NCBI GenBank assembly: GCA_036339735.1
Contig: JAYZAL010000104.1
Location: 70,833-134,832, forward strand
Direction of reading: 5' to 3'
DNA length: 64,000 nt
Origin: Candidatus Poribacteria bacterium
GTDB lineage: Bacteria > Poribacteria > WGA-4E > UBA9662
Part shown: positions 30,001-36,000 of the stretch, one piece after another
Position numbering within the stretch: position 1 is the first letter of the stretch
Layout: each line of letters starts with the position of its first letter
Program-made: the position numbers

Positions 30001-33000
30001 TCGACATGGCTCATTTTTTAGTCGGTTCAGTAGATAGTTTAGTCGCACACAGGGAAACATTCATTCGAGAACGTCCGCTCGCTGTACCAGGAGTTGGTAC
30101 TCACTTCACCGTTCGAGATGATGGTCCAAAAGGTGATGTTACTAATGAAGATTACGTTAGTGCACTGGTACAATTTGAAAACGGAGCGCAAGGCACACTA
30201 GAAGGTTGTCGAGCAATTGTAGGGCCAAAATGCGAAATGGCCTTTGAAGTCAACGGAACTAAAGGTGCAATTCGTTGGAATTTCGAGAAAATGAACGAGC
30301 TAGAAATCTATTTGCCTGAAGAATCGTCTTTTCATGATGGTTATGTGCGATCGATTTCGGACGCAAGCTATCCATTTCATGCAGCTTTTAATCCCGCAGC
30401 CGCAACAGGGCTTGGATATGATGACCTCAAGCTAATAGAGGCCTATCACTTCCTAAAAGCCATTCAAATAGGCAAACCCAATAACCCTAGTTTCCGTCAA
30501 GCGGTAACGGTGGCTCAAGTACAGGCCGCTATTCAATCATCCTGGGACAACCGCAGCTGGCAGTCAATTGCCAAGATCAATTGATCGTCTAATTTGAAAC
30601 TTTATTTGGGTTAGCCTTGAAACCAGAAACAATTAAGTTGTTATAGGGAGTAGAAGGCTCGTAATTTACAGGTCGCATAGTTGTGCTGTGGTAGCCAAAA
30701 CGGACTGATTTCCTCCATTTGTCTGTTCTGTTGCAGTCTGACCAATGAATGGTACAGTAGCTGAAAAAGATGACGTCACCAGCCTGAGCGGGGATTTTAA
30801 TGGTTTTGACAAAGTCAGGATGAAATTGATTTGTTGGTAAGTGAGGTGCCGTATCTGCACCTGTTACATGTTCGAGTGGACCTTGATGATGGCTACCTGG
30901 TACTACTTCTAGACAACCACTTTCAAGAGGCGTATCATCCAAATGAAGTAGACAATCCACAAAATCCAATCCATCATGTGGGTAGAAAGGGTAATCTTGG
31001 TGCATTGGAAAGGGAGTACCAAGTCCAGGTGGTTTAGCATGTAGGACCGTATGGTGCCATTGTACATTATTGCTTATCAGATCTTGGACTGATCCTACTA
31101 ACTTTTGATTGAAGATAACGCGACCCCAAGCAGAAGAATAGAAATGGGGATTATGCATGAAGACAGCCTTAGTATTCAGCCGTTCCTCTTGATCTAGATA
31201 ATGGTCCCGCCAAGGACCTTGCCAACCGATAGTTTCATTGCCCCAATTTTCAATTACCTGTACCATATCAGAACTTAGTTCGTGCACTTCTGACTCAGTA
31301 AACAGAGCCTCGACCTTTAAATATCCATTTTGCTGATAAAATTCAATTTGTTCTTGATTCAACATAGCGCATTCACCCAAACATTAAATTTGATCCTAAC
31401 TTAAGGTTATCATTGTTTTAAAACAAGGTTCACTAAAATAACAATGTTATAATAGAGAGATGTTATCAATTAGTAATTGTCCTCATTGCCAATTTTCAAT
31501 TTCGCCTGAGTTCCAACTTGAGGACTGGTCATCAGAGATACAATCAGCGAATAAACCAACAGAGGAATTCACCAATCATAAACACCTTTCATCTGGTGAT
31601 TGCCCACGTTGCAAAAGGTGGTTAGTGATAGCCAAATGCCAAGACTGTGGTAACCAGTACTTAAACATTAATGAGTCTCCAACAGTTCCACTGTGCCATT
31701 TATGTGAAGGCATATTATCTCCAACACTATTTACAACACAAACATCGGATGAATTACGTAACCGTGAGGCGAAACTACGAACCATTTTTGGTAGACTCTG
31801 CGCAGGCATAATGCTGACAGCAGTATTACTGCAATTGATTTTGGCTTTAACGATTGTATCGTGAATATAAACCCAAAAAGCTAAATTAGCTAATGGTAAG
31901 ATTTTTTGAGACGTGGACTAGAAAATACAATTTGGTTGGAACCAATATTAGACGGTACACAGATAATATTCTGAGGCCAAAAAACTTACCAAAAGCGAAC
32001 TAATCAGAAAGAAATTCAGATAACCTAGCAGAATTAACAGTATTATTGACCAATGCCTTTCGCTTCAGGAAACGGGAAGCAATATAGCGTTTCATTCTAT
32101 ACGTACTGACAGTCTATCATATTATCATTTCGTCTATTCTAGAGGATAACTCCGATTTTTGCAAATCTGATAATTCCATTGTCTAGATAAAAGAAAATGT
32201 TCTGGATCAGTGCATGTTGCTAGTTTGGATGAAGAGAAATAATTTCGTATCTTTAAAAGTATAGTCAAACACCCTTGTCATACAATTTTCCAAATCAATC
32301 TTGTTTTTGGCCAAATGACCAGCTATGATAGGCGAGCCTAGGTTCGGGTGCTGGTCAAGATTTGACCAGATAATAGGGAAGACGGTGTAAATCCGTCACA
32401 GCCCCGCTACTGTGATCGACGCAAACATGTATCGATACCACTGTTCTAGAAGAATGGGAAGGTGATACTTGTTGGATGTTGTCTAATATCCCGTCGTCAG
32501 TCAGGAGACCTGCCTTTTAGAATCTTGCAGTTTTCAACTTTCGCGGGAAGGTTGTGCTGTCTTTTTAAGTCTTACGCTGAACCAACAAGTGGTAATTAAT
32601 CTGATTATTGCCATTGACTAATGTTGTTTAAAATCTAATGTTATAAGCGTTGTGTATTTGCGTGAACGTATGAGCTTAAGACGGGTAGCTTCTCAGCTAA
32701 GGTTGGATTTCATGATTTAATCTAACTCTGTATTGATTAGGAGCTATCTTAGTGTCAAAAAATTATAACCAATCACTATCACAAACTAATACCCTCTCCG
32801 TCGTTTATTTCCTATTATTTTCTCTGTATTTAGCAAATCTATTTATCATTCCTCCGGTGACAGCACAACAACAGAGAATGGCCGTGGTAATCAATGGGCT
32901 AAACAAATTTGAGACTCTATCGGTTGTCAATTTAGATCATCCTGATTTGAAAAAAGCCGTTTCTGCCGATATTGCTCAACTTGGAGTCGCTCCTAACGAT

Positions 33001-36000
33001 GTTCAAATTACTGGGAACTTGGCTTATATCGTTAACACATTTAGCCACCACATACAAGTAATCAATCTTAAAACTGGTGACAGCTTAGGAGTAATTTCAA
33101 CTGGTATTGGTAGTGAGCCAGAAAAAATAGCCCTGTTAAATAATGATCGAGCTTATGTTACATGTGGCGGTACCGACGAAGTCGTTCTGATAGACCTGAA
33201 AGGTAAGATGGTTTTGCAACGAATACAAACAGGGTCAAAGCCTTGGGGGCTTACTATTCTGAATAAAAAGGTTTATGTTGCTAACTCTGCAGCTATATGG
33301 ACTGGCCAGGAAATGAAATACGGGCAAAGCAGTGTTTCAGTCATTTCAACCGATACTAATCAATTGATCACAACAATTGAAGTGCCAACTAACGCAACCG
33401 AAGTTACTTCAGATGCTAACAATACTGTCTTAGTCGTATCAACTGGCGATTATAGCCAAGTACTTGGTGAGTTAATCTTGATCGATAGTAACAAGGATAA
33501 TATCAAAAAGCAAATAAGCCTAAAATCTACACCAGGAGCTATTACTGTTAATCGAAAAAAACAACAAGCCTACATTTTGACGCCAAGTGGAGCTATTGTC
33601 GTTGATTTGATAAAACAGAGGTTAGTGGTTAAGCCGTCGTCAGCGTTACAGGATTTCAAAGGTGGCTTCAGTCTGACCTTCGACAATCAACGTGAACTGT
33701 TTTTATTAGCAGTCCCAGACTGGTCAGGTGGAAGCCAGGATCAATTATTAGTACTTGATTCAAATGGCAAAGAAATCAACCGTTACAATACTGGTACCAA
33801 AAAAGGAAAAGGTTCTTCCTTTGTAAGTTTAGCCGATATAAGTGGCTATAATGATGTTGGTGTTCAACCACGACCGAACCAGTCAGTCATCTTCTGGGGG
33901 CGAGTGAAGCAGCATTAATCGGATTTTGTCCTTTTGTGATACACAGCCCGACTTGATTGACTCTGCATAGTCCATCGTTTATAATGGTAGCTATTCCTCA
34001 ATTTAACCAATGGTTAGAGTAATAACTATCGTGAACTTTTCTTTCTGTTCGCAATTCAGTCTGGTCTTCTGGGTTATCTTCGGGCTAATCACAAACCTAC
34101 CAGTTAGTAGCCAAATCTTCTATCAGCAAAATTTTGATCAACTCGAGAATGGTGCCTTAGATGGTCAAGATGGTTGGTCAAAAACTTGGAGTGATGGTAT
34201 GGCTGACTTCCCTGAAGATATTAGTCATGCTGGAAGTTGTAAGGTTCAAGAAGAAATCAAGTTTGGTCAGGGTGGGAAAAGCATCTGCATTACAGACCAA
34301 ACAATGACTTTGCGACGATTCGTTGGAGATTACGACGGTATACAATATTTAACGTTGCGTTTTCTGTATCAATCTGGGAATGCGCCACTTTCTCTATATG
34401 CTGGTGGTAGTTTGGTCAAGTGGTGGGCTGCTGCCAGCATTAATGTACTGCCAACGGGTCAAGTCTCGGTCTATAATGGAGATATAACTGAAAACGTCGG
34501 CTGGCTACAACCCCAGATCTGGCACCAGATACATCTCATCCTCGATTTTGATCAACGTACTTTTAGCTGTTACCTCAACGATCGTCTAGTTGCACAAAAT
34601 TTTAGATTTAGAGGAGAAAATACAAGGCTAGTTCGCAATGTTAGTAACCCACGTTTAGCCTGGTTCCATTTTGGCAGGCACAAAAAAGATGAAAAACTAA
34701 CTGCTTACTTAGATGAGCTCGAAGTCGGTTCAGGTCCAGGAGGTGTCTATATAGCTGAGAGTCAAATAGAAAGAAAACTACGAAAAGTTTTGCAGAAAAG
34801 TTCCTTTGATTTAATCTCCAAAAGAGACTTGGAGCAAATTGAAACGCTTGACCTATCTGTTTTGGGTTTGACTGACTTAACTGGCTTGGAGAACTGTCTT
34901 GGTTTGAAAACGCTCTCACTCAACGGCAATCAGCTAAGTGATATTTCCCAGCTATCGGTTATGACAAACCTAAAGGAACTTGATTTAAGTAACAATCAAC
35001 TAGCTAGCTTGACACCCTGTCAAAATATGAACCAGCTAGAACAGATTTCGGTTAGTCAAAACCAAGTCCAAGATATTTTGCCGTTGGCCAATTTAACTAG
35101 ACTAAGGGGTATCGACCTCTCTCGAAATCAGGTTAATGACATCAGTCCTCTGGAAAAATTATTTAGCCTAGAATCCCTAAATCTTAGCCAAAACCAAGTT
35201 CAAGACCTGATCTGGCTCAAGAATCTTTCTAAGTTAAAACAATTAAAAATTAACCAAAATCAGATTAAAGACCTGACAACTTTAACCGCTTTAGCTGAAT
35301 TAGAAGCGCTCGAAGCTTCAGAAAACCAGATCAACGAGGTTGAGTCTCTTGAAAGTTTGGTTAGTCTAGGTCAACTCAATTTGAGCGATAATAAGATCAA
35401 AGCTCTAGATGGACTGTCGAGCCTAAGGAAATTGACAAATTTATTTTTGGATCATAATCAGATTCAGGACATTTTACCACTGGGACGTTTGTCTAACTTG
35501 AGAACTCTTCACCTAAATGACAATATGATTGAGTCGGTGGAGCCATTAACTCCATTAGCAAACCTGCAAGATTTAAGATTGGAAAGTAATAAGATTCATG
35601 ATCTCGAGCCATTGGTTAAAAATTCGGGTATTTCCGGTCGAATCTCAGTAGAAGAAAATGAATTATCTAACAGTTCTTCAACTACTTACATACCGATTCT
35701 AAAGTCTCGTCAAATCATAGTTACCCATGACCTCTTTCTACCAACTATGGTCACATTCGTGGATTCTCGGCTAGAGGTAGCTGTAAGAACAGCAATTGGA
35801 GCAAAAACTAAGCCCCTAGATTTACAGATATTATCGAAGTTAGAAGAATTTGATTTGAGTGAAGTTGAATTAGTTGACCCCAATGGTATCGAAGGAAAAA
35901 TTCGGAACTTGAGAGGTTTGGAATTCTGCCGAAACATAAGATTTTTGAATCTGAATGGAAAACTATCTCCTCCAGAAGGCAAGACACATTTTGACATCTC

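Follow-up and report, generated by a model that had tools for sequence, protein, structure and literature searches.

A propeller protein behind the only cobalamin riboswitch of a poribacterial genome and its probable descent from BtuG-type lids of BtuB

What does a genome with only one cobalamin riboswitch keep under its control, and is the regulated protein one that captures vitamin B12? Poribacteria are abundant sponge symbionts that also live freely in seawater, a setting in which the exchange of B12 structures communities, while BtuG has hitherto been treated as a Bacteroidota specialty. The window analyzed here, a stretch of 64 kb from a Candidatus Poribacteria genome, carries such a riboswitch in front of a gene for an exported seven-bladed propeller, P0001. 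We consider it probable that this propeller descends from a BtuG-type B12-capturing lid of BtuB and that the riboswitch represses it when B12 is plentiful.

The riboswitch aptamer (RF00174; 32333..32531, + strand) covers model positions 1-189 of 189 and reaches 106.6 bits (gathering score 31.5; E 1.1e-25). The survey's finding that it is the single cobalamin riboswitch in the assembly was borne out, since no second match exists in the whole genome (4.32 Mb, 92% complete), and it is also the sole Rfam match at gathering level within the window. Directly 5' of the aptamer lies a putative weak promoter-like pair, read from the sequence (32301..32329, + strand; TTGTTT at 32301-32306, 17 nt, TATGAT at 32324-32329), which falls short of the cut-off used in scanning for promoters; this block is kept in a 70%-identical relative (L043). 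On the 3' side, a terminator scan and a minimum free energy fold give a terminator-like candidate expression platform (32527..32566, + strand) with an inner stem (32535-32542/32547-32554), outer arms taken from the fold (32527-32531/32556-32560), and then C and UUUUU (32562-32566). The hairpin that the survey had placed 3' of the riboswitch is therefore present at 32535-32554 with a T-run, and its sequence is kept in 3 of 3 aligned close relatives (L043, L003, and L004), but it is not significant by itself because the scanned region holds 2 terminator-like sites against 1.6 expected. Clear and stronger canonical terminators lie 45-115 nt past the aptamer in 13 other loci.

A long leader (32567..32738, + strand) connects the platform to a Shine-Dalgarno sequence, AGGAG (32739..32743, + strand), 8 nt 5' of the GTG start codon. 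The resulting distance of about 220 nt between aptamer and gene would fit a situation in which the two have become uncoupled in the source genome, with an internal promoter-like site driving the gene and the aptamer persisting as a relic or as a separate small RNA. Such a site, matching at 9 of 12 positions, overlaps the 3' end of the aptamer (32494-32523). RNA-library contigs (4 runs, 4 studies) partly cover the aptamer, the leader, and the coding sequence; those of two studies run from 32535/32538 to 32763/32796, and none joins aptamer to leader. These contigs cannot show RNA ends, however, and the gap between them is uninformative, while the aptamer is intact over the full model and the arrangement is conserved in nearly all Poribacteria. 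We regard uncoupling as very improbable and treat the propeller gene as the target of the riboswitch.

This gene (32752..33918, + strand) encodes 388 amino acids, and its open reading frame, translation, and AF2 model describe a secreted YVTN/BtuG-like propeller. Alignment with orthologues, whose signal peptides finish at A/G-Q, suggests a hydrophobic, Sec-type signal peptide of 38 residues (32752..32865, + strand) cleaved between PPVTA and QQQ. Neither the translation nor the orthologue alignment places a Cys at the N-terminus of P0001, which is thus without a lipoprotein signal, and in the window the gene is flanked by a small ORF and a gene for an LRR protein; the survey's caveat that lipobox and adjacent TonB-dependent transporter are both missing accordingly stands. 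In the model (pLDDT 86.5, pTM 0.81), the propeller occupies residues 40-364 and is followed by a disordered C-terminal tail (residues 366-388, pLDDT <50; 33844..33915, + strand) that carries the end tag VIFWGRVKQH (WGRVK at 33895-33909). The corresponding motif, W[GS]x[IVL]K, is found at the C-terminus in 56 out of 3100 long ORFs from this genome, versus 2 of 3100 internal controls. As the survey had reported, P0001 belongs to no Pfam family past its cut-off, although NHL comes within reach at 19.8 against 20. The DUF5074/BtuG family PF16819 does not match it at E up to 0.1 and has no match over cut-off in the whole genome. P0001 passes the YVTN repeat profile TIGR02276 (37.0 bits vs 27.85) and does not reach the YncE family (NF052280, 29.3 bits vs 400; no match to PF21783).

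The pairing of riboswitch and propeller is phylum-wide in Poribacteria. An orthologue of the propeller is present, with one match each, in 119 of 121 Poribacteria genomes, the source genome (G000) counted, and was not found in the other 2 (G008 and G013). All 34 distinct loci scanned with Rfam have RF00174 upstream of the propeller in the same orientation, with 19 of 20 loci in one set and 15 of 15 sources in another; in the one exception, L020, the flank was too short, and the locus was picked up again as L037. These counts differ from those behind the survey's claim of conservation (38 of 40 genomes, 19 of 19 loci) and agree with its sense. For 76 of the 80 best related loci, a nucleotide profile of 35 aptamers, run with nhmmer, recovered a riboswitch at most 700 nt upstream. 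The 80 loci and the 121 genomes were drawn from one species pool, so that the two counts are not independent; 74 of the 80 loci are labeled Candidatus or uncultured Poribacteria and 6 "uncultured bacterium," among them the closest, L043. Beyond this circle, only 5 of 20 wider metagenomic relatives with enough upstream DNA have the riboswitch, and the wider propeller family is therefore not uniformly linked to B12.

Whether the propeller is a BtuG is a question on which fold and sequence give divided answers. BtuG1, BtuG2, and BtuG3 of Bacteroides thetaiotaomicron (8BLW, 8PTD, 8BAI, 8OKV, and 3DSM; DUF5074 or YncE family) are surface lipoprotein lids of BtuB, and P0001 shares with them seven blades, an equal size, and control by a cobalamin riboswitch. 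Its modeled seven-bladed beta-propeller superposes on the BtuG structures, Foldseek ranks 1-16 are all BtuG1/2/3 structures together with 3DSM, and the best single-sequence matches in the PDB are to BtuG1 (6.6e-10). The family profile, built without the two canonical members described below, nevertheless prefers 1L0Q, the archaeal YVTN surface-layer propeller of Methanosarcina (5.2e-29 vs 8.3e-21 for BtuG1), much as the survey had warned of a generic archaeal propeller as the better match. The 1L0Q match consists of three repeat-level stretches rather than one collinear alignment; the protein has no tie to B12, riboswitches, or TonB-dependent transporters, and in Foldseek it falls under all BtuG entries (TM 0.62 vs 0.75-0.80). 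Only 2 of the 11 corrinoid contacts of BtuG2 (E55, G56, F58, Q93, N107, S131, R133, W149, W194, S195, and Q219, numbered to match the accessible portions of preprint 10.1101/2024.02.16.580637 and review PMC13616437) are kept in P0001, namely Q93 and Q219, both as Asn (Asn82 and Asn214); the E-G-x-F loop is missing, and within the subfamily the contact columns show no more conservation than random columns (fraction 0.50). Taken by themselves, neither sequence nor fold establishes that the subfamily of P0001 descends specifically from BtuG.

The case for BtuG descent is strengthened by the deep-branching lineages of the phylum. In four such genomes (loci L032, L033, L034, and L035), a protein of 636-719 aa with Plug and barrel domains sits between the riboswitch and a lipoprotein propeller, and this order of riboswitch, BtuB-like TonB-dependent transporter, and propeller is that of the Bacteroides btuB-btuG loci. 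The top NCBIfam match of the transporters, for which NCBIfam was run on all four and Pfam on three, is TonB-B12, under its cut-off. All six deep-lineage propellers have a lipobox Cys followed by an acidic run. Two of the deep-branching genomes (G100 and G104) encode canonical DUF5074/BtuG proteins, with PF16819 scores of 55.6 and 69.5 bits against a cut-off of 27.2; the G104 protein matches BtuG1 at 1.1e-37 and BtuG2 at 1.8e-26 in an alignment that starts at the lipid Cys. L032 and L036 are 29% identical over their full length (6e-16), and P0001 shares 33-36% identity with L032-L034 and L037. The survey's proposed relation to BtuG is thus supported by the gene order and the two canonical proteins, with the caveat of a profile that turns to 1L0Q when those two are left out, and the BtuG reading of P0001 leans mainly on gene context rather than on fold or sequence.

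The same evidence bears on a different view of the propeller, in which it is still B12-regulated but no longer binds corrinoids, serving instead as a scaffold, assembly, or docking factor for a partner system or carrier while the vitamin is held by one of two conserved partners, F1 and F2, or by another protein. This would account for BtuG2 contacts that are mostly replaced and not preferentially conserved and for a generic YVTN propeller scoring on par with BtuG, and both F1 and F2 possess sizeable extracytoplasmic domains of undescribed function. On the other hand, L032-L034, which belong to the same subfamily, are without the E-G-x-F loop as well and are nevertheless lipoproteins 3' of a riboswitch and a BtuB-like transporter, which is the position of a B12 lid; even BtuG1 and BtuG2 have only about 60% of their contacts in common, according to the available part of preprint 10.1101/2024.02.16.580637; and in the source genome it is the propeller alone that has kept the riboswitch. 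We therefore judge a nonbinding scaffold unlikely and continue with the propeller as a putative B12-capturing protein.

If the propeller began as a lid of BtuB, then its present company in the window's order has changed considerably. Close BtuB-like orthologues (40-100% identity) occur only in G002, G004, G006, and G046, with none found in the window's order, and a BtuB-like query recovered no close orthologue from the source genome. F1, a previously undescribed membrane protein with a lipobox, three beta-sandwich domains, and six C-terminal helices, follows the propeller gene at 68 of 80 loci, and a further propeller, F2, does so at 63 of them; neither partner is known from the Bacteroides systems. 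F1 and BtuB are distributed in a complementary fashion, F1 having been found in all 55 of the main-order genomes sampled and in none of the 6 from deep lineages. The F1-F2 pair of G003 is separate from the propeller and follows an RF00174 riboswitch of its own. In the source genome, the three genes are scattered, with F1 on contig C5 and F2 on C72, both without a riboswitch, and so the putative capture protein alone stays B12-regulated there.

The anchor has changed as well, with a C-terminal module standing in place of the lipid anchor of the Bacteroides proteins. Among the 80 orthologues, 60 end in dockerin repeats, 7 in dockerin plus a T9SS-like CTD, and 11 in a tag like that of P0001, including its four closest relatives (L043, L044, L045, and L047); the 2 without any module are the lipoproteins, and every nonlipoprotein orthologue has one. 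The F1/F2 pair, the loss of BtuB in the order, and the replacement of the lipid anchor by C-terminal modules are all new with respect to the survey.

The source genome contains the B12-binding domain PF02310, while CbiC and CobS were not found in its 92% complete assembly, a combination that fits reliance on scavenging. Its only BtuB-like TonB-dependent transporter lies inside a heme-type Fur/HmuQ/HmuY cluster, and its sole Peripla_BP_2 gene is in the heme-type cluster on C80. That the only BtuB/BtuF-like transport genes belong to a Hmu cluster could point to an extracytoplasmic chaperone for another tetrapyrrole such as heme, or for cobalt. B12 riboswitches also regulate cobalt transport in some bacteria, so that a cobalt chaperone would account for the riboswitch, and propeller metallochaperones are known, with AztD among the weak NCBIfam and Foldseek matches of P0001. 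The failure to find CbiC and CobS argues in the other direction, since cobalt for B12 synthesis then seems unneeded; the ancestral neighbor is a TonB-dependent transporter whose top family match is a B12 receptor, and no metal-site motif was seen in the propeller. We consider a cobalt or heme chaperone highly improbable.

A BtuG-derived capture protein could operate as follows. When B12 is scarce, transcription would pass through the terminator into the propeller gene, usually the first of an operon with F1 and F2 in the main order. The propeller would be exported, and its tail would keep it attached outside the cytoplasm, where it may bind corrinoids and hand them to an uptake route through F1 and F2 instead of BtuB. 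More tentatively, and as a possibility to which we give less than even weight, BtuB may have given way, when the main poribacterial order arose, to an undescribed uptake module of F1 and F2, to which a BtuG-derived propeller, tethered by a dockerin, a T9SS-like tail, or the new WGxIK tag rather than by lipid, would deliver the vitamin. If this were true, it would constitute a new way of acquiring B12 in a phylum of sponge symbionts and marine bacteria, with the window holding its riboswitch-controlled capture component. F1 and F2, both unstudied families, are candidate B12-uptake components.

The statement that BtuG is "exclusive to Bacteroidetes" (Wexler 2018) was based, in the portion of that paper available, on a BlastP search limited to 313 genomes from the human gut; a 2023 preprint on lids of TonB-dependent transporters placed "virtually all" linked homologues in Bacteroidota, and the accessible part of a 2026 review (PMC13616437) reports BtuH and BtuJ, not BtuG, beyond that phylum. 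Poribacteria would be a second phylum, one whose early branches have the classical riboswitch-btuB-btuG order and whose main order has a derived form that kept the riboswitch and dropped BtuB and the lipid anchor. This amounts to a natural experiment on the redeployment of a B12-capturing lid and raises the question of whether B12 capture by the propeller fold is older and wider than thought.

Other B12-binding proteins offer functional parallels. BtuF-type periplasmic proteins, soluble binders that pass B12 to a membrane transporter, have an unrelated fold and would be analogues if the propeller feeds F1. BtuH, BtuJ/DUF4465, and BtuK of Bacteroides are likewise exported corrinoid scavengers of riboswitch-controlled B12 loci; the folds of BtuH and BtuJ differ from a propeller, and BtuK1 (9S6C) appears at Foldseek rank 50 for the P0001 model.

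The description that best fits the 388-aa secreted propeller P0001, encoded at 32752-33918 on the forward strand, is a putative capture propeller of BtuG descent that is controlled by a B12 riboswitch, occurs in a second phylum and is no longer coupled to BtuB. P0001 differs from BtuG, the B12-capturing surface lid of BtuB in Bacteroides, in its missing lipobox, its lack of btuB adjacency, its failure to match the family profile and its altered contact residues, and because several of these defining features fail, we class it as a variant of BtuG and not as a member. The survey's finding of a B12-switched, BtuG-like propeller was a real observation and its reading is supported, with corrinoid capture itself only putative. 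The parts of the literature available to us hold no report of BtuG homologs in Poribacteria, nor of the genes for the membrane-protein family (F1) and the second propeller family (F2) that follow the propeller in most relatives, and supplementary homolog lists could be wider.

A cmscan of the whole window placed RF00174 at 32333-32531 on the forward strand (106.6 bits, E = 1.1e-25, model positions 1-189) as the sole gathering-level match, and a search of the whole assembly (G000; 4.32 Mb, 107 contigs, 92% complete) returned this same single copy and no other, as the survey had claimed. Its further claim, that the riboswitch-propeller pairing is conserved across the phylum, holds in a larger sample. 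An orthologue was found, as one match each, in 119 of 121 genomes across the phylum including the window's own, with G008 and G013 as the misses and G100 and G104 as weak matches. Rfam searches found RF00174 upstream in 19 of 20 loci and then in 15 of 15 further sources, which gives 34 of 34 distinct loci, all on the strand of the gene; the flank of the sole miss, L020, was too short, and in L037, which reaches further, the riboswitch lies 4.2 kb upstream. Among the 80 best related loci, an nhmmer profile of 35 aptamers places a riboswitch no further than 700 nt upstream in 76 and at least 2 kb upstream in two more, with no match at L049 or at L052, whose flank is only 697 nt; these 80 loci share their species pool with the 121 sampled genomes and are not independent of them. 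The closest relative among the 80, L043, shows 70% identity. The DNA and RNA runs that contain the stretch are labelled as marine or seawater metagenomes, and an Atlas search with P0001 gave, as leads only, hypothetical-protein clusters, all scoring below 0.9, in which the small number of members with labels belong to Acidobacteriota, Tectimicrobiota and Binatota.

Transcription termination is the likeliest mechanism, and an OFF switch is predicted, because 13 other loci (L003, L004, L006-L010, L022, L032-L035 and L037; the count excludes 12 matches at offset -21, i.e., within the aptamer) have canonical terminators, made up of a GC-rich stem and a T-run, at 45-115 nt 3' of the aptamer. The terminator of L011 is weaker, and that of the window adjoins the aptamer directly, with an inner stem at 32535-32542/32547-32554 from the terminator scan, to which folding adds outer arms at 32527-31/32556-60 and then C and UUUUU. 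The terminator-like hairpin that the survey had reported is present and its sequence is kept in the three closest relatives aligned, but the scanned region holds 2 terminator-like sites against 1.6 expected, so the window hairpin alone carries little weight. Direct sequestration of the ribosome-binding site by the aptamer is unlikely since the distance is too large: a leader of about 220 nt is followed by AGGAG and the GTG start. Contigs from RNA libraries, which can contain DNA, partly cover aptamer, leader and gene in four runs of as many studies, and all four leave 32504-32534 uncovered; neither RNA ends nor RNA levels can be read from such contigs. Contigs from the RNA libraries of two studies extend into the gene from starts at 32535 and 32538, where the hairpin opens, and 32494-32523 holds a 9-of-12 promoter-like site; this is no more than a weak pointer to a processing site or an RNA end.

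Predicted fold and sequence place P0001 in the YVTN/BtuG propeller class. Its N-terminus is a hydrophobic signal ending ...PPVTA-QQQ, without a cysteine, and a Pfam scan found no family above cut-off. The best single-sequence PDB matches are BtuG1 (8PTF/8PTD at 6.6e-10, 8BLW at 2.5e-9), followed by 1L0Q at 7.8e-9; 10.1101/2024.02.16.580637 describes entries 8PTD and 8PTF as BtuG1 structures with CNCbl and Cbi. With the AF2 model of P0001 (pLDDT 86.5, pTM 0.81), Foldseek ranks 1-16 are all BtuG1/2/3 and 3DSM (E 3e-19 to 2e-17, TM 0.75-0.80), and 1L0Q comes at rank 17 (2.5e-15, TM 0.62). A 20-sequence profile reached BtuG1 at 1e-34 in one collinear stretch, but this score hinged on two canonical sequences, those of G100 and G104. 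When they are left out, 1L0Q comes first (5.2e-29, in three stretches), ahead of BtuG1 (8.3e-21) and BtuG2/3 (about 1e-14). In the library, 34,786 representatives match the subfamily profile at E 0.001 and 572 do so at 1e-30, with many giant multi-propeller proteins among them. The BtuG relationship proposed by the survey is favored by the Foldseek ranking, while the lead of 1L0Q in the reduced profile speaks against it, and it is gene context in the phylum that ties P0001 to BtuG. Searching the genome for PF16819 (DUF5074) gave no more than a weak match of 16.3 bits, in a 1808-aa frame on C45.

In four early-branching Poribacteria (L032 of G002, L033 of G004, L034 of G006 and L035 of G100), a gene of 636-719 aa stands between riboswitch and propeller and either overlaps the propeller gene or ends a few bases short of it. 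Pfam, run on three of the four, recognizes Plug and TonB-barrel domains in this gene, and its best NCBIfam match is the B12 receptor TIGR01779, well under the equivalog cut-off. All six propellers from the deep lineages carry a lipobox cysteine and then an acidic run (e.g., ...IIG-CGEDSEDN). This layout of a TonB-dependent transporter (TBDT) gene followed by a lipoprotein propeller with an acidic run matches btuB-btuG of Bacteroides, where the available text of Wexler 2018 gives BtuG2 a Cys-32 and then a lipoprotein export signal. The G100 and G104 proteins pass the Pfam DUF5074 cut-off, and the G104 protein by itself matches BtuG1 (1.1e-37) and BtuG2 (1.8e-26) in alignments that begin at the lipid cysteine. 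The L032 propeller is 29% identical to this canonical G104 protein over its full length (6e-16), and P0001 is 33-36% identical to the lipoprotein forms of L032-L034 and L037. A plasmid tblastn with the G104 protein returned only Bacteroidota records and one partial Rhodococcus match; on a Bacteroides finegoldii plasmid, a TonB-dependent receptor is followed by a 655-aa "DUF5074 domain-containing protein." The deep locus L037 (G046:C181) runs at 210-5675 from riboswitch through nrdD (with a LAGLIDADG intein) and nrdG to the lipoprotein propeller, and its genome holds six RF00174 copies, three of them just upstream of TBDT matches.

Residue numbering was checked against the papers: in the alignments, F60 and R141 of BtuG1 sit at the positions that the papers give, as do C32, E55, G56, F58, Q93, N107, S131, W149, W194, S195 and Q219 of BtuG2. 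Carried onto P0001 via the G104 protein, the BtuG2 contacts E55, G56 and F58 fall on G49, L50 and K52; Q93 and N107 on N82 and T96; S131 and R133 on E122 and E124; and W149, W194, S195 and Q219 on G140, A181, Y190 and N214, so that only two remain similar. G100 and G104 retain N-E-G-x-F, N and N. The contact columns of the 18-sequence subfamily are no more conserved than random column sets (fraction 0.50). These changes count against an unchanged binding mode in P0001. However, the E-G-x-F loop is absent too from the lipoprotein members that stand behind a riboswitch and a BtuB-like TBDT, and the available text of 10.1101/2024.02.16.580637 gives only about 60% of contacts as common to BtuG1 and BtuG2.

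Close orthologues (40-100% identity) of the BtuB-like TBDT of L032 occur in G002, G004, G006 and G046 only, and the best match in 55 sampled genomes of the main-order families f1-f4 is at most 28% identical. The best match in the window genome, on C80, is 25% identical and was ruled out as a BtuB candidate by its heme-type neighbors. This cluster (G000:C80:12283-19911, L124:4283-11911) comprises an ABC ATPase, Fur, an HmuQ-like heme-degrading protein, the 666-aa TBDT, two HmuY, Peripla_BP_2 (the sole such gene of the genome) and FecCD; HmuY is best known from Bacteroidota.

After the propeller and on its strand, F1 follows in 68 of the 80 loci and F2 in 63, an operon conserved in most Poribacteria (L044-L122; e.g., L044:7092-8879 and 8879-10339). 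An F1 profile found one match in each of the 55 sampled f1-f4 genomes and none in the six deep-lineage genomes, which makes the distribution of F1 the mirror image of that of the BtuB orthologue. F1 proteins have about 600-700 aa, a lipobox-like N-terminus, beta-sandwich domains and six C-terminal helices. An F1 protein, P0002, matched nothing in Pfam or PDB sequences and no relevant NCBIfam model, and an Atlas search offered as a lead only an ABC_cobalt/PF09819 cluster (score 0.84). The AF2 model of F1 (pLDDT 66 and pTM 0.48 only) drew uninformative Foldseek matches to generic tandem Ig/FN3 (TM up to 0.26), and a predicted complex of P0001 (40-365) with the F1 of the window genome (45-635) scored 0.00, which, run without controls, counts neither way. 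F2 is a PQQ_2/WD40-like propeller of about 490-590 aa, with weak WD40 noise only in a PDB sequence search. The propeller locus of G003 lacks F1 and F2; the pair (L125:4098-6086 and 1971-3737) lies 250 kb off behind a second RF00174 (G003:C1:3878958-3879155, reverse strand), which indicates that the F1-F2 pair is itself B12-regulated.

In the window and in L043, a giant leucine-rich-repeat (LRR) protein takes the usual place of F1; in the window, it is a 1736-aa protein at 34010-39220 on the forward strand with a dockerin domain and a FlgD_ig/T9SS-like C-terminal tail, preceded by an 11-of-12 promoter-like site at 33957-33985. Propeller, F1 and F2 are on three contigs in this genome, with F1 behind an ABC ATPase gene on C5 (94463-96370, L129:3964-5871) and F2 on C72 (12408-13703); the genome-wide RF00174 search found no riboswitch at either. 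Candidate B12-binding domains (PF02310) lie in two frames, one of 1103 aa on C46 and one of 239 aa on C30. Neither CobS nor CbiC turned up in the genome, which is 92% complete; this negative is compatible with dependence on external corrinoids but no proof of it.

In library relatives with 330-450 aa, a lipobox and acidic run, dockerin repeats or a T9SS-like tail are often present. An alignment of an 8-sequence subset found 33 metagenomic loci, and in 20 of them the upstream DNA extends for about 1.7 kb or more. RF00174 lies upstream on the same strand in 5 of these 20 and in none of the 13 short ones; the other 15 longer loci have no riboswitch in the available upstream DNA. Directly upstream of the propeller, most of the loci have an ORF of 727-787 aa, whose best family match in 7 of 7 scanned cases is the B12 receptor, under cut-off, and one locus has a BtuF-like gene downstream. 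These loci carry no taxon label and hence do not demonstrate spread beyond Bacteroidota. Many of the relatives (L132-L160) show a TBDT and then a lipoprotein propeller with Cys and acidic run, and in L135, a group II intron match comes right after the propeller gene.

The C-terminal modules of 80 orthologues are dockerin-like repeats in 60, dockerin plus a T9SS-like NPFNP tail in 7 and a W[GS]x[IVL]K tag in 11; the two with none are the lipoproteins, and every non-lipoprotein form has a module. The tail of P0001, ...VIFWGRVKQH (motif at 33895-33909), is an instance of a genome-wide C-terminal motif, AV[DE]PxxKLxTTW[GS]x[IL]K followed by 1-5 residues to the protein end, which no Pfam or NCBIfam model matched. 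It stands at the C-terminus in 56 of 3100 long ORFs of the window genome versus 2 of 3100 internal controls, and it may be a sorting signal. LamG-like proteins about 270 aa long make up many of its carriers, and one carrier in the window, at 60371-61423 on the reverse strand, has a cohesin domain.
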